DNA from: a virus
Lineage: Duplodnaviria > Heunggongvirae > Uroviricota > Caudoviricetes
Length of the DNA: 21,500 nt
Virus record (IMG/VR): IMGVR_UViG_2529292759_000004
Direction: 5' to 3' (one strand)
The translations under genes were made by a program, and so were the position numbers. Numbering within the stretch: the first letter of the stretch is position 1; each line of letters begins with the position of its first letter. Positions 8,223-16,617 of the stretch are shown here, one piece after another. The notes below the pieces were generated by a model. That model saw only the letters and a list, made by a program, of their open reading frames with translations, made no database searches and was not told the origin of the DNA.

Positions 8223-8776
8223 ATTCCAAACCCCATTTGCCCCGACTCATCTTCAAGCGGTAAAGGTATTCTCCCAGAGTAAGTTATGTTCAGATGTTTA
8301 CAGAAGTAATTCCAATACCCTACCAGGTCATCTGGGTTTATGTCATCTTCGATTGGAAACGCTATTCTATCACTATAGTATCCAGCTTCTTCATAGTATA
8401 CATGGTAGTGAGCACCGTAAATGATATCTTGGTACTTCGGATGATCGACCTTGTAACTATTCGTGTGTTTGTCAAAGTGATAGGTATCTACCGCGAAAAC
8501 CCTCTTGTTATGATAGAAAGCAATAATATTTATTTTAGGGTAAGAAATCGGGTCATCAGGTTCTGAATCCTGATCTGGTTTCCATTTCAGTTCAAACTTT
8601 AGCCCTTGTATAGGTATACAATCCTCATCCAAGGGGATGATATGGGCTTGTAGCCACATATCAGAGCGACTTGGTTTCTGTTTCCATTTAACGCCAGAAA
8701 AGTTAACTATTTTTTTACAATAAAGTACTTTATCAACTTCTACTTGGCTTGGCTGATAATCATCTATTTTTGCCAA
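8219..8776 (-). CDS. Hypothetical protein (185 aa), first gene of immunity-region cargo operon
   Basis: ORF starts 40 nt after the cI stop on the same strand. The track start at 8776 is TTG (first internal ATG is codon 40), so the true start is uncertain. Tyr/His-rich segment HYHVYYEEAGYY; no family recognised. Confidence 0.65.
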   Translation of the reverse strand: MAKIDDYQPSQVEVDKVLYCKKIVNFSGVKWKQKPSRSDMWLQAHIIPLDEDCIPIQGLKFELKWKPDQDSEPDDPISYPKINIIAFYHNKRVFAVDTYHFDKHTNSYKVDHPKYQDIIYGAHYHVYYEEAGYYSDRIAFPIEDDINPDDLVGYWNYFCKHLNITYSGRIPLPLEDESGQMGFGI

Positions 8777-8815
8777 TGTTTACCGCCCTGTAAATTGTAG
8801 ATAAAAGTGGTTTCA

Positions 8816-9475
8816 TCACCCAAACGTCTCTTCAGGCCATTGGCTGGCGATAACTTTCCCCACAACGGAACAACTCTCATTGCATGGGATCATTGGGTAT
8901 TGTGGGTTTAGTGGCTGTAGAAACACCTGACCGCTATCCCTGATCAGTTTCTTGAAGGTAAATTCATCACCACCAAGTCTGGCTATGCAGAAATCGCCGG
9001 GCTCAACAGCTTGCTCAGGGTCAACCAGAATTAACATCCCGTCAGGAAAGCTGGGTTTGGAACCTGTTGGTGCGGTCATTGAGTTACCTTCAACCTCAAG
9101 CCAGAATGCAGAGTCACTGGCTTTTTTGGTTGTGCTTACCAATCTCTCCGCATCGCCTTTGGTAAAGGTTCTGAGTTCTGGAGAGAACATCCCAGCCTGA
9201 ACATGAGAAAAAACAGGGTACTCATATTGTTTTTTAACTGGGGCCGATGAGTATTCGCCAACAGGTGAAAATGTCCCGTCGTGGTTGAATGATATGTTAT
9301 CAATACCAAGGTATTTAAACACCACACCAATATCACTAAGAGATGGATGACGAGATCCGCGCAACCAGTGTCCAATCCCACCCTGCGTCATACCTAGCTC
9401 TTCGGCTAACTTCTCTTGAGTTATGCCGAGCTCTTTCATTCTGGATCTAGCCAGTTCATACCATTTCATTTTCAT
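8816..9475 (-). CDS. cI: CI-type prophage repressor (HTH_XRE N-domain plus S24/LexA-like autopeptidase C-domain)
   Basis: HTH ...[21 protein letters not shown]...; Ala-Gly site (VQAGMF); Ser (GNSMTAP) and Lys (FKKL) of the S24 dyad. Track start 9517 is TTG; ATG candidates at 9509, 9475, 9469; AAGGA SD favours 9469/9475. Confidence 0.85.
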
Positions 9476-9586
9476 GTCCTTATTATTACGCTCTGTACTG
9501 GAACCATCCATGCACAATGTGTATTTTTACTTGTATTCGCAAAGTACATATTGTATTTTTTTATTCGTGTTTACTATGGAGGGCAT
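9476..9586. promoter_or_regulatory. oR operator / pRM-pR divergent promoter region
   Basis: 111-bp intergenic region between divergent cI and cro; repeated TTGTA/TACAA half-sites and the inverted 11-mer AAAGTACATAT (9541-9551); candidate pR -35 TTGTAT (9531-9536) and -10 TATTTT (9554-9559). Confidence 0.45.
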
Positions 9587-9802
9587 ATGAGCAACCTACG
9601 AAAATATCGAGAGTCACTGAATATCTCTCAAACAACACTTGCTAAGGCAGTTGGATGCACACAGGGAGCTATCGGACATTGGGAATCTGGTCGTCGCTTC
9701 CCAGACCTTAAAACATGCCGTGCTCTTGTTGCGTGCCTAAACAAGTTAGGCGCAAAAGTCAGTCTTGATGACGTGTTCCCGCCGGAACACAAAGCCGCTT
9801 AA
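9587..9802 (+). CDS. cro: Cro-type HTH repressor (71 aa)
   Basis: ATG at 9587 preceded by GGAGG; HTH ISQTTLAKAVGCTQGAIGHWESG; divergent from cI. The track ORF from 9416 is a non-ATG extension. Confidence 0.8.
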   Translation: MSNLRKYRESLNISQTTLAKAVGCTQGAIGHWESGRRFPDLKTCRALVACLNKLGAKVSLDDVFPPEHKAA

Positions 9803-9812
9803 TAAGCGGATC

Positions 9813-9858
9813 CGCTCTTTGTAACAACGGACATTCGTCCTACGTCGCTGAAAAGCGA
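9813..9858 (+). promoter_or_regulatory. nutR: boxA CGCTCTTTG plus boxB-like hairpin UCGCU-GAAA-AGCGA
   Basis: boxA at 9813-9821, spacer hairpin GGAC-attc-GTCC (9829-9840), boxB 9845-9858, directly downstream of the cro stop. Confidence 0.55.
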
Positions 9859-9887
9859 GTTCCAAGATATCTGACCAACTAAGGCCA

Positions 9888-9905
9888 TATGCGTTTCCAC
9901 GCATA
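9888..9905 (+). terminator. Candidate tR1-region hairpin
   Basis: ATGCGT-ttcc-ACGCAT stem-loop followed by ACCTTTCAAC, between nutR and cII; weak U-tract, may be rho-dependent. Confidence 0.25.
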
Positions 9906-9943
9906 CCTTTCAACTAACTATTCACTATTGGAAATCTTAAGAA

Positions 9944-10240
9944 ATGGAAAGAACAAGTTACAGCAAACTATCACAGCGTGACGTTGATCGCGCAGAAACA
10001 GATTTACTTATCAATCTGTCAGCTATTACCCAGCGCGGTCTGGCAAAGATGATTGGCTGTCATGAATCGAAGATAAGCAGAACGGACTGGAGATTTATTG
10101 CTTCGGTCTTGTGTGCTTTCGGAATGGCATCAGACATCAGTCCGATTAGCAGGGCTTTTAAGTATGCGCTTGATGGACTCACCAATAAAAAACGCCCGGC
10201 GGCAACCGAGCGTTCTGAACAAATCCAGATGGAATTCTGA
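9944..10240 (+). CDS. cII: CII transcriptional activator (98 aa), hybrid: divergent N-terminus, lambda-type C-terminus
   Basis: C-terminal LTNKKRPAATERSEQIQMEF matches lambda CII; the N-terminal DNA-binding part differs. Confidence 0.85.
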   Translation: MERTSYSKLSQRDVDRAETDLLINLSAITQRGLAKMIGCHESKISRTDWRFIASVLCAFGMASDISPISRAFKYALDGLTNKKRPAATERSEQIQMEF

Positions 10241-10262
10241 GGTCATTACTGGATCAATCCAC
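10184..10262 (-). ncRNA. oop: oop antisense RNA (about 77 nt) overlapping the cII 3' end
   Basis: Minus-strand sequence GAUUGAUCCAGUAAUGACCUCAGAAUUCCAUCUGGAUUUGUUCAGAACGCUCGGUUGCCGCCGGGCGUUUUUUAUU closely matches lambda oop as I recall it, including the terminator hairpin and U-run. Confidence 0.7.
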
Positions 10263-10272
10263 AGGAGTCATT

Positions 10273-11172
10273 ATGACAAATACAGCAAAAATACTCAACT
10301 TCTGCAGAGGTAACTTTGCCAAACAGGAGCGTAATGTGGCAGATCTCGATGATGGTTACGCCAGACTATCAAATATGCTGCTTGAGGCTTATTCAGGCGC
10401 AGATCTGACCAAGCGACAGTTTAAAGTGCTGCTTGCCATTCTGCGTAAAACCTATGGATGGAATAAACCAATGGACAGAATCACCGATTCTCAACTTAGC
10501 GAGATTACAAAGTTACCCGTCAAACGGTGCAATGAAGCCAAGTTAGAACTCGTCAGAATGAATATTATCAAGCAGCAAGGCGGCATGTTTGGACCAAATA
10601 AAAACATCTCAGAATGGTGTATCCCTCAAAACGAGGGAAAATCCCCTAAAACGAGGGATAAAACATCCCTCAAATTGGGGGATTGCTATCCCTCAAAACA
10701 GGGGGACACAAAAGACACTATTACAAAAGAAAAAAGAAAAGATTATTCGTCAGAGAATTCTGGCGAATCCTCTGACCAGCCAGAAAACGACCTTTCTGTG
10801 GTGAAACCGGATGCTGCAATTCAGAGCGGCAGCAAGTGGGGGACAGCAGAAGACCTGACCGCCGCAGAATGGATGTTTGACATGGTGAAGACCATCGCGC
10901 CATCAGCCAGAAAACCGAATTTTGCAGGGTGGGCTAACGATATCCGCCTGATGCGTGAACGTGACGGACGTAACCATCGCGACATGTGTGTACTGTTCCG
11001 CTGGGCATGCCAGGACAACTTCTGGTCCGGTAACGTGCTGAGCCCGGCCAAACTCCGCGACAAGTGGACCCAGCTCGAAATCAACCGTAACAAGCAACAG
11101 GCAGGTGTGACAGCCTGCAAACCAAAACTCGACCTGACAAACACTGACTGGATTTACGGGGTGGATTTATGA
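10273..11172 (+). CDS. O: Replication initiator O (299 aa)
   Basis: MTNTAKILNFCRGNFAKQERNVADLDDGYARLSNMLLEAY... matches lambda O; contains the ori iterons. Confidence 0.97.
   Translation: MTNTAKILNFCRGNFAKQERNVADLDDGYARLSNMLLEAYSGADLTKRQFKVLLAILRKTYGWNKPMDRITDSQLSEITKLPVKRCNEAKLELVRMNIIKQQGGMFGPNKNISEWCIPQNEGKSPKTRDKTSLKLGDCYPSKQGDTKDTITKEKRKDYSSENSGESSDQPENDLSVVKPDAAIQSGSKWGTAEDLTAAEWMFDMVKTIAPSARKPNFAGWANDIRLMRERDGRNHRDMCVLFRWACQDNFWSGNVLSPAKLRDKWTQLEINRNKQQAGVTACKPKLDLTNTDWIYGVDL
10621..10750 (+). repeat. ori-lambda: four 18-19 bp iterons plus AT-rich unwinding region
   Basis: Iterons ATCCCTCAAAACGAGGGA (10621-10638), ATCCCCTAAAACGAGGGAT (10641-10659), ATCCCTCAAATTGGGGGAT (10665-10683), ATCCCTCAAAACAGGGGGA (10688-10706), then an A/T-rich tract to about 10750. 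Confidence 0.85.
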
Positions 11173-11870
11173 AAAACATCGCCGCACAGATGGTTAATTT
11201 TGACCGTGAGCAGATGCGTCGGATCGCCAACAACATGCCGGAACAGTACGACGAAAAGCCGCAGGTACAGCAGGTAGCGCAGATCATCAACGGTGTGTTC
11301 AGCCAGTTACTGGCAACTTTCCCGGCGAGTCTGGCTAACCGTGACCAGAACGAACTGAACGAAATCCGCCGCCAGTGGGTTCTGGCTTTCCGGGAAAACG
11401 GGATCACCACAATGGAACAGGTTAACGCAGGAATGCGCGTAGCCCGTCGGCAGAATCGACCATTTCTGCCATCACCCGGGCAGTTTGTTGCATGGTGCCG
11501 GGAAGAAGCATCCGTTATCGCCGGACTGCCAAACGTCAGCGAGCTGGTTGATATGGTTTACGAGTATTGCCGGAAGCGAGGCCTGTATCCGGATGCAGAG
11601 TCTTATCCGTGGAAATCGAACGCGCACTACTGGCTGGTTACCAACCTGTACCAGAACATGCGGGCCAATGCGCTGACTGACGCGGAATTACGACGCAAGG
11701 CTGCCGATGAACTGACCTGTATGACAGCGCGAATTAACCGTGGTGAGACGATACCTGAACCAGTAAAACAACTTCCTGTCATGGGCGGCAGACCTCTAAA
11801 TCGTGTTCAGGCGCTGGCGAAGATCGCAGAAATTAAAGCTAAGTTAGGACTGAAAGGAGCAAGTGTATGA
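11169..11870 (+). CDS. P: Replication protein P (DnaB helicase loader), 233 aa
   Basis: MKNIAAQMVNFDREQMRRIANNMPEQYDEKPQVQQVAQIINGVFSQLL... matches lambda P; ATGA overlap with the O stop. Confidence 0.97.
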   Translation: MKNIAAQMVNFDREQMRRIANNMPEQYDEKPQVQQVAQIINGVFSQLLATFPASLANRDQNELNEIRRQWVLAFRENGITTMEQVNAGMRVARRQNRPFLPSPGQFVAWCREEASVIAGLPNVSELVDMVYEYCRKRGLYPDAESYPWKSNAHYWLVTNLYQNMRANALTDAELRRKAADELTCMTARINRGETIPEPVKQLPVMGGRPLNRVQALAKIAEIKAKLGLKGASV

Positions 11871-12157
11871 CGGGCAAAGAGGCAATTATTCATTACCTGG
11901 GGACGCATAATAGCTTCTGTGCGCCGGACGTTGCCGCGCTAACAGGCGCAACAGTAACCAGCATAAATCAGGCCGCGGCTAAAATGGCACGGGCAGGTCT
12001 TCTGGTTATCGAAGGTAAGGTCTGGCGAACGGTGTATTACCGGTTTGCTACCAAGGAAGAACGGGAAGGAAAGATGAGCACGAACCTGATTTTTAAGGAG
12101 TGTCGCCAGAGTGCCACGATGAAACGGATATTGGCGGTATATGGAGTTAAAAGATGA
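11867..12157 (+). CDS. ren: Ren (96 aa)
   Basis: 96-aa ORF overlapping the P stop; matches lambda Ren in position and size. Confidence 0.85.
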   Translation: MTGKEAIIHYLGTHNSFCAPDVAALTGATVTSINQAAAKMARAGLLVIEGKVWRTVYYRFATKEEREGKMSTNLIFKECRQSATMKRILAVYGVKR

Positions 12158-12182
12158 CCATCTACATCACTGAGCTAATAAC

Positions 12183-12214
12183 AGGCCTGCAGGTAATCGC
12201 AGGCCTTTTTATTT
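12183..12214 (+). terminator. Rho-independent terminator (tR2-like) before the nin region
   Basis: Stem AGGCCTGC / GCAGGCCT with loop AGGTAATC, followed by TTTTTATTT. Confidence 0.6.
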
Positions 12215-12230
12215 GGGGGAGAGGGAAGTC

Positions 12231-12671
12231 ATGAAAAAACTAACCTTTGAAATTCGATCTCCGGCACATCAGCAAAACGCTATTCACGCAGTACAGCAAA
12301 TCCTTCCAGACCCAACCAAACCAATCGTAGTAACCATTCAGGAACGCAACCGCAGCTTAGACCAAAACAGGAAGCTATGGGCCTGCTTAGGTGACGTCTC
12401 TCGTCAGGTTGAATGGCATGGTCGCTGGCTGGATGCAGAAAGCTGGAAGTGTGTGTTTACCGCAGCATTAAAGCAGCAGGATGTTGTTCCTAACCTTGCC
12501 GGGAATGGCTTTGTGGTAATAGGCCAGTCAACCAGCAGGATGCGTGTAAGCGAATTTGCGGAGCTATTAGAGCTTATACAGGCATTCGGTACAGAGCGTG
12601 GCGTTAAGTGGTCAGACGAAGCGCGACTGGCTCTCGAATGGAAAGCGCGATGGGGAGATCGGGCTGCATGA
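12231..12671 (+). CDS. ninB: NinB (Orf recombination protein family), 146 aa
   Basis: MKKLTFEIRSPAHQQNAIHAVQQILPDPTKPIVVTIQERNRSLDQNRKLWA... matches lambda NinB; ATG at 12231 with SD GGGAGAGGGAAG. The track start 12213 is TTG. Confidence 0.9.
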   Translation: MKKLTFEIRSPAHQQNAIHAVQQILPDPTKPIVVTIQERNRSLDQNRKLWACLGDVSRQVEWHGRWLDAESWKCVFTAALKQQDVVPNLAGNGFVVIGQSTSRMRVSEFAELLELIQAFGTERGVKWSDEARLALEWKARWGDRAA

Positions 12672-13195
12672 CTATCAAATCAAATACGCCAGCACACGAC
12701 AAGGACTGCTGGCAAACGCCGCTTTGGCTTTTTGATGCACTGGATATTGAGTTTGGATTCTGGCTGGATTCGGCAGCGAGCGACAAAAATGCTCTGTGCG
12801 CTCACTGGCTAACTGAGGACGACGACGCGCTCAATTCTGAGTGGGTAAGCCACGGTGCAATCTGGAATAACCCACCGTACAGCAATATCAGGCCGTGGGT
12901 GGAAAAAGCCGCTGAGCAGTGTATACAACAGCGACAGACGGTAGTGATGCTTGTGCCAGAGGATATGTCTGTCGGATGGTTCAGCAAGGCTCTGGAGAGT
13001 GTTGACGAAGTTCGTATTATCACTGATGGACGGATTAATTTTATCGAACCATCGACAGGGCTGGAGAAGAAGGGAAACAGCAAAGGCTCCATGCTGCTGA
13101 TTTGGCGACCGTTCATCAGTCCTCGACGGATGTTTACTACCGTATCCAAAGCGGCATTGATGGCGATCGGGCAGGGCGTCAGGAGGGCTGCATGA
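12668..13195 (+). CDS. Phage N6-adenine DNA methyltransferase (Dam-like, 175 aa)
   Basis: NPPY motif ([10 protein letters not shown]) typical of N6-adenine methyltransferases; ATGA overlap with the ninB stop; no adjacent restriction endonuclease. Confidence 0.75.
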
Positions 13196-13368
13196 GACGA
13201 CAGCGACGAAGCATCACCGACATAATCTGCGAAAACTGCAAATACCTTCCAACGAAACGCTCCAGAAATAAACGCAAGCTAATCCCAAAAGAATCTGACG
13301 TAAAAACCTTCAATTACACAGCCCACCTGTGGGATATCCGGTGGCTAAGATATCGTGCGAGGAAATGA
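13192..13368 (+). CDS. ninE: NinE (58 aa)
   Basis: [62 protein letters not shown] overlap with the methyltransferase stop. Confidence 0.8.
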
Positions 13369-13712
13369 CAATGGATTATTCACAGTTAAGTGATTTTGAA
13401 ATTAACAGAATGGTAGGAGACATAATTTTTAAAGGCCTTTGGGCAAGTAAACCGGAAACATCAGGGAATAACACCAACAAATGGTATTACGGAAATGCTG
13501 ATACAACTTTTGAGCCATTAAATCATTTGCCTGACTACTGCAATGATCCGAGCGCTTCATGGCCGATTATTGAGAAATACAGGATTTCTATCTTAGACCA
13601 GTTAACTGAATGGTGTGTGGATGCAAAAGGCGTAAGCCCAATATTTGATACCAGACCTCTCCGCGCCGCCATGATTGTCTTTCTCCTGATGCAGGAGGCC
13701 AATAATGCTTAG
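13365..13712 (+). CDS. Hypothetical nin-region protein (115 aa)
   Basis: ATG at 13365 overlaps the ninE stop (ATGA); occupies the slot held by ybcO in DLP12-type prophages, but I cannot confirm the identity from sequence. Confidence 0.55.
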
Positions 13713-13899
13713 CCCATCTCAATCCCTTCAATACCTGAAAGAAAGCATAGAGCGGGCTTCAATGTGCACAGAGTGGATTCTATCTAGGTTTAGCGCATAC
13801 AGAAGATTGCCGGTAAAGGGCATGCCAAGCAAGTCGATGCTGCATATGCAAAAGAATGCGCGCTGGAAGGTATGGCGAGAACACAGGTTATGTGGCTGA
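13705..13899 (+). CDS. NinF-like small protein (64 aa)
   Basis: N-terminus [18 protein letters not shown] resembles lambda NinF; C-terminus diverges; start overlaps the previous stop. Confidence 0.5.
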
Positions 13900-13918
13900 A
13901 AGAGGGGGTTATTAAGGC

Positions 13919-14281
13919 GTGAATACCTACAGCATCACATTACCCTGGCCTCCGAGCAATAATCGCTATTACCGCCATAATCGCGGGCGCACGCACGTCA
14001 GCGCAGAGGGGCAGGCATACCGCGATAACGTCGCCCGAATCATTAAAAACGCAATGCTGGATATCGGCCTGGCTATGCCTGTGAAAATCCGCATTGAGTG
14101 CCACATGCCGGATCGCCGTCGCCGTGACCTGGATAATCTGCAAAAAGCCGCTTTTGACGCACTCACTAAAGCAGGTTTCTGGCTGGATGATGCTCAGGTC
14201 GTTGATTACCGCGTTGTGAAGATGCCTGTTACCAAAGGTGGGAGGCTGGAACTGACCATCACCGAAATGGGGAATGAATGA
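13919..14281 (+). CDS. rusA: RusA Holliday-junction resolvase (120 aa)
   Basis: [42 protein letters not shown]... matches E. coli DLP12 RusA as I recall it; GTG start at 13919. Confidence 0.9.
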
Positions 14282-14418
14282 TGTTTGAGTTTAATATGGC
14301 AGAACTTCTTCGCCACCGCTGGGGGCGTCTGCGCTTATATCGTTTCCTCGGTTCTGTTTTGACCGATTACCGAATACTGAAGAATTACGCCAAAACCCTG
14401 ACAGGAACAGGAGTATGA
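14278..14418 (+). CDS. ylcG: Small protein YlcG-like (46 aa)
   Basis: Hand translation [50 protein letters not shown] overlap with the rusA stop; below the ORF-track cutoff. Confidence 0.55.
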
Positions 14419-14503
14419 AGTCAGAGATAACAATCAACTAATACTGTTTTGTTGATTTTTGCTTGTAATTGGCGTTCTGGTCTGATTTTTGTGGAGTAAG
14501 TTG

Positions 14504-14887
14504 ATGCGTGATATTCAGATGGTTCTTGAGCGTTGGGGTGCGTGGGCGGCTAATAATCATGAAGATGTGACCTGGTCGTCCATTGCCGCCGGTTTTAAGG
14601 GATTAATTCCTTCAAAAGTAAAATCTCGCCCGCAATGTTGTGACGATGACGCGATGATCATTTGCGGGTGCATGGCCCGTCTGAAAAAGAACAACAGCGA
14701 TTTACACGATTTATTAGTAGATTATTATGTATGTGGTATGACATTCATGTCACTGGCAAGTAAGCATTGCTGCTCGGATGGTTATATCGGGAAAAGGTTA
14801 CAGAAGGCTGAGGGCATAATTGAAGGGATGTTAATGGCATTAGATATCCGGTTAGATATGGATATCGTTGCTAATAATTCTAATTGA
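14504..14887 (+). CDS. quuD: Q-type late-gene antiterminator (phage 82 / DLP12 QuuD type), 127 aa
   Basis: [60 protein letters not shown]... matches QuuD as I recall it; ATG at 14504. The track start 14489 is TTG. Confidence 0.85.
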
Positions 14888-14910
14888 TATGCAATTGTTT
14901 ACTAAAAGTT

Positions 14911-14937
14911 ATTAAAAATGGGGCGTGGAAACGCCCC
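14911..14937 (-). terminator. Candidate rho-independent terminator (minus strand)
   Basis: Hairpin GGGGCG-tggaaa-CGCCCC (14920-14937) followed on the minus strand by AUUUUUAAU; about 140 nt downstream of the nmpC stop. Confidence 0.35.
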
Positions 14938-15025
14938 CAAAATAAAGGGTAATATATAACAGAAGGTTTATATAGTAAGAAGCAAGGTAGTGCTTCTAAA
15001 GGAAGTGGCTTGAGGGCTCCACTTA

Positions 15026-15065
15026 TATGTTGCGGAGGCAAAGCCTCCCGCAACATATCTTTTTC
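15026..15065 (+). terminator. Strong rho-independent terminator (plus strand), candidate tR' downstream of Q
   Basis: 15-16 bp stem ATATGTTGCGGAGGC / GCCTCCCGCAACATAT followed by CTTTTT; convergent with the nmpC 3' end at 15076. Confidence 0.55.
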
Positions 15066-15075
15066 GTAAGTCAGA

Positions 15076-16158
15076 TTAGAACTGATAAACCAGACCTACA
15101 GCGACGATGTCGTCGGTATCAATACCAGCTGTTTTGGTAAACTTACTATCGTCAATTAAGTTGATTTTGTAATCAACAAAAGTGGACATGTTTTTATTAA
15201 AGTAGTAAGTAGCACCGACATCGACATACTTGACTAAGTCTCGGTCACCATGAACACCAAGGTCTTTACCTTTTGACTGAAGGTAAGCAACAGATGGACG
15301 CAGACCGAAGTCAAACTGATATTGTGCTACTGCTTCAAAGTTTTGTGCTTTGTTTGCAATATGGTTATTACCAAAAACGGTCATATTCTGAGTTTCAGAA
15401 TATGTGGTAGCCAGATAGATATTGTTCGCATCATATTTCAGGCCTGCAGCCCATACTTCCGCATTTTTGCCGGAGGCATTGAATTTGCTCTTACCATAGG
15501 CGACCTGACCGTCAGTGCGATCTGATTTAGCATAGGTTGCACCCACGCCGAATCCTTCATACTCATAAGTAGTGGAGAAACCGAAACCATCACCATTGGC
15601 TTCAGTTACGTCAGTGCGGTCATTTTTACCCTGATACTGAGCAGCAAAGTTCAGGCCATCGACCAGACCAAAGAAGTCGTTGTTACGATAAGTTGCAACA
15701 CCAGTAGTGCGACCAGTCATGAACACATCTGTTTGGGTCCAGGTATCACCACCGAATTCTGGCAGAACGTCAGTCCACGCACCGATGTCGTATGCTACAC
15801 CGTAGTTACGGCCGTAATCGATTGAGCCGTAATCACCAAATTTCAGGCCTGCAAATGCAAGACGGGTTTTGTCTTTGGAAGAACCTTGAGATTCAGCACG
15901 GTTGCCTTTGAATTCATATTCCCACTGACCGAAACCAGTCAGTTGATCGTTGATTTGGGTTTCACCTTTGAAGCCAAGACGGGCATAAGTAGTATCACCA
16001 TCATCTGCATCATTAGAGGAGAAGTAGTGCTTGGCATTAACTTTCCCGTATAGATCCAGCTTGTTACTGTCTTTATTATAAATTTCAGCTGCCTGAGCAG
16101 ACATCGCCATCAGTACTGATGCAGCTACAGCAGAAATTGCCACTGTTAATTTTTTCAT
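15076..16158 (-). CDS. nmpC: Outer-membrane general porin, NmpC/OmpD-like (360 aa from MKKL...)
   Basis: Signal peptide [23 protein letters not shown], then AEIYNKD...; C-terminal beta-barrel signature ending ...VGLVYQF; ATG at 16156-16158 with SD AAGGG. The track start 16218 is an upstream extension. Confidence 0.9.
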
Positions 16159-16584
16159 TGTACGCCCTTTTTTTGAACTATTATTAAAAAATGATGTCAC
16201 TGCGCGATAAATATTCATCTAATCAATGTGATTATTTCAAGATGTAAGTTTTAGTTTCTCATTTAATTTGTGAAGTAGATCTCTATTTTTATCTGAACCT
16301 TTTCTATCTAATCCTATTCATGGCTCTTGTCTGAACAAAAATAAATCTATTAGCTAATTTATATTAATGGCACTTATTTATAAGTGCTCTATAATTCTTT
16401 AGCTTAATTTAAACAAACTAAAAATAACATTGGAAATTATTAACTGGTTATTTGTTGAAGTTTTCTTATGCATTTGTGGTGGTGTTTTGAACACTCGGTG
16501 GCATTCTCACAAATATCATTTAGTAGTTTACGTACGTAAAAAATTGGTTATGCTGTTAAGAGTGGTTACTTCGTCACACAGCTT

Positions 16585-16617
16585 AAACCCGCCGTCGAGC
16601 GGGTTTTTCCATTTTTT
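16585..16617 (+). terminator. Rho-independent terminator upstream of the lysis cassette
   Basis: Stem AAACCCGC / GCGGGTTT with loop CGTCGA followed by TTTTTCCATTTTTT; lies in the AT-rich 16200-16740 intergenic region. Confidence 0.5.

Follow-up and report, generated by a model that had tools for sequence, protein, structure and literature searches.

The breakpoint of lambda homology inside cII of a lambdoid phage: the classical imm21-type right border, at the left edge of a shared oop/cII-tail patch

INTRODUCTION

A border of the imm21 type has been described for lambda imm21 (PMC3349717), and the record of phage 21 (AJ237660) carries annotations for oopRNA and, inside cII, for a 'border lambda immunity'. 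In lambda, the oop gene and the 3′ end of cII overlap by about 52 nt, and this overlap mediates antisense control (PMC5869508; PMC3349717). The C-terminal 16–20 residues of CII provide the signal for FtsH proteolysis and are needed for CII activities in lambda (PMC5869508, citing Kobiler 2002; PMC3349717). Lambda hy106, a lambda/P22 hybrid whose junction falls within pO, uses the opposite edge of the conserved oop patch; divergence at −19 of pO has been reported (PMC3349717).

Here we describe the immunity region of a 21.5 kb stretch of DNA, referred to below as the window, that covers the half of a lambdoid phage from int to lysis and encodes exo, bet and gam. A preliminary description of this DNA had proposed a mosaic joint inside cII and a second joint further left, which together would bracket a swapped immunity module. 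We located the joint in cII, compared it with the border of phage 21 and followed its recurrence in other phages and in Escherichia coli genomes. Coordinates of the features are collected in Table 1.

Table 1. Features of the immunity region and its borders, in window coordinates
Feature	Position	Strand	Basis
End of lambda homology on the left, in the ral-sieB spacer 21 nt before the sieB ATG	6142..6143		Alignment to lambda
sieB, P22-type	6163..6744	+	Amino acid and nucleotide identity to P22
N antiterminator, Stx2-II-type	6761..7033	−	Pfam N_peptide, E 1.5e-32; 93% to Stx2 II from exactly 6761
Lambda-like island, oL to cI operon end, including Timm	7345..7466 (122 nt)		90% to lambda
Two-gene cassette, rexA/rexB position between cI and Timm	7470..8776	−	Comparator alignments
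DUF1828 protein, 250 aa	7470..8222	−	PADLOC PDC-M24B, 4.7e-10
185-aa protein	8219..8776	−	PADLOC PDC-M24A, weak, 4.8e-4; Pfam DUF6978 below threshold
cI C-terminal part (hinge and S24 cleavage/oligomerisation), lambda-like	8815..9226	−	93.4% to lambda
cI N-terminal HTH, Stx2-II-type	9227..9511	−	98–100% to Stx2 II, none to lambda
cro, 71 aa HTH, Stx2-II-type	9587..9802	+	Pfam HTH_3; 95–100% to Stx2 II
cII, 98 aa, phage-21/HK022/933W-type with lambda-identical C-terminal tail	9944..10240	+	Pfam, structure match, annotation
cII codons 1–78 (HTH and oligomerisation part)	9944..10177	+	DNA without homology to lambda, 42% aligned identity
CII box (TTGC-N6-TTGT repeat) at pRE −35, within cII codons 4–8	9953..9966	−	Pattern search
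Mosaic joint (homology breakpoint versus lambda), cII codon 78/79 boundary	10177..10178		Maximum-likelihood change point; 8-phage alignment switches there
cII codons 79–98 and stop, C-terminal tail	10178..10240	+	20/20 aa identical to lambda CII
tO, oop intrinsic terminator	stem 10216–10189; scanned T-rich tail to 10179	−	Terminator scan
oop antisense RNA gene, approximate ends	10183..10262	−	Ends inferred from phage 21 annotation
pO, predicted sigma-70 promoter of oop: TTGAGT, 17-nt spacer, CATAAT, extended −10	10298..10270	−	Promoter scan
O replication initiator with ori iterons, lambda-type	10273..11172	+	97% identity to lambda

RESULTS

The window and its relatives

Escherichia phage PhiR63_2 is 100% identical to the window, and PhiR57_1, ev017 and ev207 are 99.4–99.8% identical to it; ev207 is classified in Jouyvirus, the same genus as phage 21. 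The prophage integrated at icd in E. coli Nissle 1917 matches window 6139–17815 at 99.97% identity. Window 429–6138 is missing from Nissle 1917 via an ISEc52-associated deletion, and the endpoint of that deletion (window 6139) lies 3–4 nt from the end of lambda homology at 6142/6143 in the ral-sieB spacer, perhaps by coincidence.

Two further observations concern the flanks of the region studied here. On the left, the Rfam model Lambda_thermo (the cIII RNA thermometer) matches 5080–5138 on the minus strand with 88.5 bits, and a cIII gene is therefore present, where the annotation of ev207 shows only a long 'Kil' ORF. On the right, lambda homology ends at the ninB stop (12671) and restarts at ninE (13199), and a DNA N6-adenine methyltransferase gene (12668–13195) stands in place of lambda ninC–ninD, filling the gap of 12672–13198.

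A sharp breakpoint relative to lambda inside cII

The ORF at 9944–10240 encodes a homologue of CII, the tetrameric activator of the promoters pRE, pI and paQ. The Pfam Phage_CII profile (PF05269) matches residues 1–92 with an E value of 7e-34 and 116.4 bits, above the curated cut-off of 21.3 bits, and the solved lambda CII structures 1xwr, 1zpq and 8igr match residues 13–98 (E 9e-10). In phages identical to the window, the ORF is annotated as cII. A candidate CII box, TTGCTGTAACTTGT, at 9953–9966 on the minus strand lies as far from the start of cII as does the CII site annotated in phage 21; the count of TTGC-repeat motifs across the whole window is not above chance, and the evidence for the box is its position.

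Compared with lambda CII, the protein shows 38 identities over 88 aligned positions, 20 of them within the tail. The preliminary description had called the last 20 residues lambda-like and the first 78 or so divergent, and the alignment agrees on both counts, as the tail, LTNKKRPAATERSEQIQMEF, is identical to lambda CII at 20 of 20 residues and the first 78 residues are about 26% identical outside the tail. The locus thus resembles the lambda CII/FtsH/oop system in its Pfam family, its HTH, the TTGC-N6-TTGY box over the 5′ end of cII, the identical 20-aa tail and the presence of oop, pO and tO, and differs from it in the low identity of CII residues 1–78. By identity, the tail encoded by 10178–10240 matches the lambda FtsH degradation signal and would, from what the literature reports for lambda, act as one.

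To locate the change from divergent to lambda-like sequence, window 9500–10700 was aligned with lambda and a two-rate maximum-likelihood change point was fitted. The optimum lies at 10177/10178, with a 2-lnL support interval of 10178–10180, and the two-rate fit gains 242 lnL units over a uniform rate. Identity to lambda is 42% on the left of this point and 97% on the right; within cII alone, the left/right contrast has a Fisher p of 1e-19. On that left side, the longest run identical to lambda measures 8 nt. Gradual decay of lambda identity across 10100–10300 was looked for and none was seen, nor did the window–lambda alignment show a shoulder of intermediate identity on the left of the joint. 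A boundary of the recombination type near 10170–10180 in cII, as first proposed from the letters alone, is thereby confirmed and narrowed to one exact position, and alignment to lambda, which had been suggested for telling a sharp breakpoint from a gradual one, found it sharp. On the right of the joint, lambda homology runs for about 2.5 kb (10178–12671) at 97.3% through oop, O, P, ren and ninB, just as the preliminary description had said of the overlapping oop and the lambda-like genes downstream.

The breakpoint adjoins the end of the oop terminator

Over its 95 nt, the oop region (10178–10272) shares 96.8% identity with lambda, the three mismatches being at 10234, 10256 and 10260. The oop assignment is based on this identity, on promoter and terminator scans and on folding; an Rfam scan of the window at the gathering threshold matched Lambda_thermo only and no oop model, possibly because Rfam has none. 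The oop fold has a free energy of −28.4 kcal/mol (z = −3.1), the predicted pO corresponds in position to lambda pO, and tO sits inside the 3′ end of cII. The joint is located 1 nt past the scanned tail of tO and about 5 nt past the inferred 3′ end of oop. The part of cII that encodes the lambda-like tail is thus antisense to oop.

The same joint recurs in other phages and in E. coli genomes

The cII body (9944–10177) was found in 266 phage records, 252 of which match at 90% identity or more (21, HK022, mEp234 and Stx phages), and the oop patch in 314 records, P22-like Salmonella phages among them. Matches were present in 1887 of 5426 complete E. coli genomes, 1368 of them covering at least 80% of cII plus oop, and at least 286 E. 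coli records, CFT073 and ATCC 11775 included, match at 99% or better. All eight partial matches sampled among E. coli prophages begin at window 10178 (query base 235). The joint came up again with a chimeric query, for which 10 of 25 sampled matches begin at its base 81.

We then typed cII bodies and oop alleles in an alignment of eight phages spanning cII and oop. A single cII body, that of the window, 21, Stx2 II, 933W, HK022 and Kapi1, is found with either of two oop alleles. Allele A is carried by the window, lambda, Kapi1 and BIS08P22 and in a variant form by phage 21, and allele B by Stx2 II, 933W and HK022. Conversely, allele A is joined to three cII bodies, of the 21, lambda and P22 c1 types. 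The CII tails encoded by the two alleles are LTNKKRPAATERSEQIQMEF and ITKKKSPAATEDFKQIDMQF. Two compensatory base pairs in tO separate the alleles, a pattern that indicates selection on RNA structure.

The nearest relative of the window also changes at this point. Left of the joint, the window shares 94.8% identity with Stx2 II and cannot be aligned with lambda; right of it, identity is 96.8% with lambda and 80.9% with Stx2 II. The switch from Stx2 II to lambda across the joint is phylogenetic incongruence. On the right-hand side, relatives break either at the cII stop (Kapi1 and BIS08P22) or at the O ATG (Stx2 II and HK022). The chimeric query did not detect the fourth combination, oop allele B behind a lambda cII body, in the 5426 E. 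coli genomes; the best full-length matches had 88% identity and were the lambda body with allele A. The combination that would complete the formal four-gamete test is therefore missing.

The joint is the border already known from phage 21

Relative to phage 21, cII has no joint: phage 21 matches window 9912–12671 at 96.2% in a single blast HSP that runs unbroken across 10177/10178. Phage 21 has the same type of cII body (93.8% nucleotide identity) and the same lambda-type oop-O-P-ren-ninB downstream of it, and has its border in the same zone of oop/cII overlap. Because phage 21 itself combines a 21-type cII body with lambda-type oop-O-P-ren-ninB, the joint in the window is inherited; it is none other than the classical imm21-type right border, already known and very common.

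The two borders differ slightly in their exact position. In phage 21, 36 nt separate the strict border with lambda from the cII stop; this border falls within the tO loop, 27 nt to the right of the border in the window, because the oop of phage 21 has its own substitutions and a 3-nt insertion. The window oop, in contrast, equals lambda throughout the terminator, its three mismatches lying elsewhere in 10178–10272, and its border is therefore shifted 27 nt to the left, to the end of tO. Unlike lambda hy106, the window has no break relative to lambda on the right side of the oop patch.

The immunity genes themselves are another matter. The window cI, cro and N are of the Stx2 II type and are not the immunity genes of phage 21. 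Phage 21 matches window 1–6043 at 97.6%, its homology on the left ends at 6043, and over 6044–9911 no homology to phage 21 was found except a 75-nt nutL-like patch. The border is thus the same as that of imm21, and the immunity specificity is, judging from these genes, different.

A patchwork to the left of cII

The preliminary description had taken sieB to be lambda-like and had set a second joint between sieB and N at 6745–6760. The encoded SieB is 82% identical in amino acids to P22 SieB and 18% to lambda SieB (E 0.61), and sieB with its flanks matches P22 at 91% nucleotide identity by megablast and at 85.5% over window 5769–6824 by blastn. Since its premise was wrong, sieB being P22-type, the second joint is unsupported as a lambda boundary, and lambda homology in fact already ends at 6142/6143. 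What stands of it is a junction at 6760/6761 that exists only relative to Stx2-II-type phages, the homology of which starts at the N stop codon.

From there, N, nutL and pL/oL (6761–7467) are Stx2-II-type at 93%. The last 66 nt of N, about 22 codons (6761–6826, minus strand), are common to other N types as well (91% to HK106, 95% to 1H12 and, weakly, P22 gene 24), and this conserved C-terminal tail of N at a module edge is analogous to the tail of cII. Timm is annotated in the homologous segment of HK106, and the lambda-like island at 7345–7466 ends at the Timm hairpin, the exact left edge of the two-gene cassette.

For the cassette region (7467–8814), no homology was found in lambda, 21, Stx2 II, HK106 or P22. 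Each of the two cassette proteins has a match in PDC-M24, a candidate defence system in PADLOC, and the cassette occurs at 99% identity or more in 241 of the 5426 complete E. coli genomes (CFT073, Nissle 1917, ABU 83972 and ATCC 11775). Next to it, cI is divided at about residue 96, between HTH_3 (residues 23–70) and S24 (residues 99–221), and is a second gene with an intragenic joint relative to lambda. The oR region goes with the cI HTH domain and cro (9227–9802) in being Stx2-II-type.

One swapped immunity module of about 3.4 kb, as had been proposed, is not what these alignments show. The non-lambda interval (6143–10177) measures 4.0 kb and is interrupted by two lambda-like islands, 7345–7466 (90%) and 8815–9226 (93.4%), and the 'immunity module' is accordingly a patchwork and not one cassette. 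As in other lambdoid mosaic genomes, unalignable DNA lies between blocks above 90% identity, and the boundaries are edges of genes, domains or regulatory elements: the sieB ribosome-binding site, the N stop codon, Timm, the cI hinge and the end of tO. The window is a textbook case of lambdoid modular organisation, with nothing substantive that sets it apart.

The Nissle 1917 'phage repressor pr' is encoded by the cII region

A fragment of Nissle prophage 3 has been cloned as 'phage repressor pr' (EcN_1294; PMC5987069), and on pUC19 it cut the plating of lambda and Stx phages by more than 200-fold (PMC5987069). The cloning and qPCR primers of that study map to 9898–9916, 10247–10266, 10141–10158 and 10181–10199 of the window. 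The cloned insert corresponds to window 9898–10266, and this 369-nt Nissle fragment is 100% identical to the window. Given the primers and this identity, the published anti-phage 'repressor' is the cII ORF, predicted to encode a CII activator and not a repressor. The annotation of ev207 (LR597636) likewise labels the cII ORF 'Phage repressor'. A literature search found no paper linking Nissle prophage 3 to cII, and PMC9836094, on lambdoid co-transfer, does not mention cII.

DISCUSSION

The joint in cII is sharp, recurs at one position in many genomes and coincides with the end of tO. Very probably, the widely shared oop/cII-tail patch is a recurrent module edge at which immunity and replication modules are re-assorted. 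Position 10177/10178 would then be the left edge of a short shared patch consisting of pO-oop-tO plus, on the opposite strand, the last 20 codons of cII. The diverged cII bodies (21/HK022/933W-type, lambda-type and P22 c1-type) would move together with pRE and the immunity genes, each of them abutting the same patch, and the patch would travel with, or link to, the replication genes. Everything to the right of the edge is presumably under double constraint, one strand having to provide the oop terminator with its antisense pairing and the other the CII tail, which would explain why the edge is located where it is. The conserved patch, together with neighbouring modules, could supply homology for Red- or RecA-mediated crossovers between related phages, and selection may keep only those products that preserve both oop and the CII tail. 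A patch that is conserved and supports crossovers in this way would let the heterology edge recur at one base.

Against this explanation, the crossovers are not directly observed, and the edge could stem from one illegitimate event followed by descent. Such a single joining at the end of tO, followed by descent and by transfer of whole modules under functional selection, is the strongest of the alternatives, even if we consider it rather unlikely. It predicts a boundary at the edge of a functional unit, as seen, and it fits both the missing fourth allele combination and the lack of an intermediate-identity shoulder on the left of the joint. Without such a shoulder relative to lambda, a homeologous crossover at this exact spot is therefore not indicated; about half of the blocks in lambdoid mosaics have no shoulders (PMC2327257). 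The allele combinations speak against a single joining, since the same body with two oop alleles and one allele with three bodies require several exchanges at or near the site. In addition, the patch offers 60–95 nt at 80–100% identity, enough for Red exchange (PMC2327257), and lambda Red recombines diverged DNA efficiently and acts on DNA that differs by 22% (PMC2327257). We thus favour repeated exchange around the shared patch, with the mechanism of crossover and the reasons for its selection as its interpretive part.

Insertion of a single immunity cassette of about 3.4 kb into a lambda backbone, with joints at 6745–6760 and 10170–10180, is improbable. This reading has the position of the cII joint right, and Stx2-II-type homology does extend from 6761 to 10280, the two-gene cassette excepted. 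It fails on the left, where sieB is P22-type and lambda homology ends at 6142, and in the interior, where the lambda-like islands at 7345–7466 and 8815–9226 refute its strong form and the cassette region 7467–8814 is absent from Stx2 II. The flanks, moreover, are at least as close to phage 21 (97.6% over 1–6043), with which cII is continuous. The joint is not specific to the phage of the window, and no cassette was dropped into a lambda backbone.

Divergence without recombination, in which the cII body changed in place and the last 20 codons were kept solely through their oop coding, is very improbable. The tail and oop are indeed doubly constrained, the compensatory changes indicate selection on tO, and the CII bodies are true homologues. 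Yet the 97% identity runs 2.5 kb past oop, which dual-coding constraint cannot explain, and the nearest relative changes at the joint from Stx2 II to lambda, by which differential constraint alone is rejected. An assembly chimera or sequencing artefact at the joint, which had nothing to recommend it, is excluded by the 100% identical sequence in the independent isolates ev207, ev017, PhiR57_1 and PhiR63_2 and by the at least 286 E. coli records matching at 99% or better.

As a discovery the joint is small, in that it re-locates the known boundary of lambda imm21 hybrids. Its use is as a worked example in which each breakpoint of an immunity region falls at a functional edge: a stop codon, an operon terminator, a domain hinge in a protein or the place where an RNA terminator ends.

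It also bears on annotation, as automated calls name cII 'phage repressor' and at least one experimental paper has read cII so. As for the anti-phage effect of 'pr', it is conceivable, and we put it forward tentatively, that CII supplied in trans protects by cross-activating the lysogeny promoters pRE, pI and paQ of incoming lambdoid phages or by inhibiting their replication. A CII body common to Stx phages, a TTGC-repeat box of the lambda type and a tail and oop that match lambda would favour such action in trans.

The oop/cII tail and the O-P-ren block are 97% identical to lambda, so primers or RNA-seq reads meant for the prophage can cross-react with infecting lambdoid phages. The qPCR amplicon of 'pr' (10141–10199) straddles the mosaic joint, with its reverse primer in the lambda-identical oop/cII tail.
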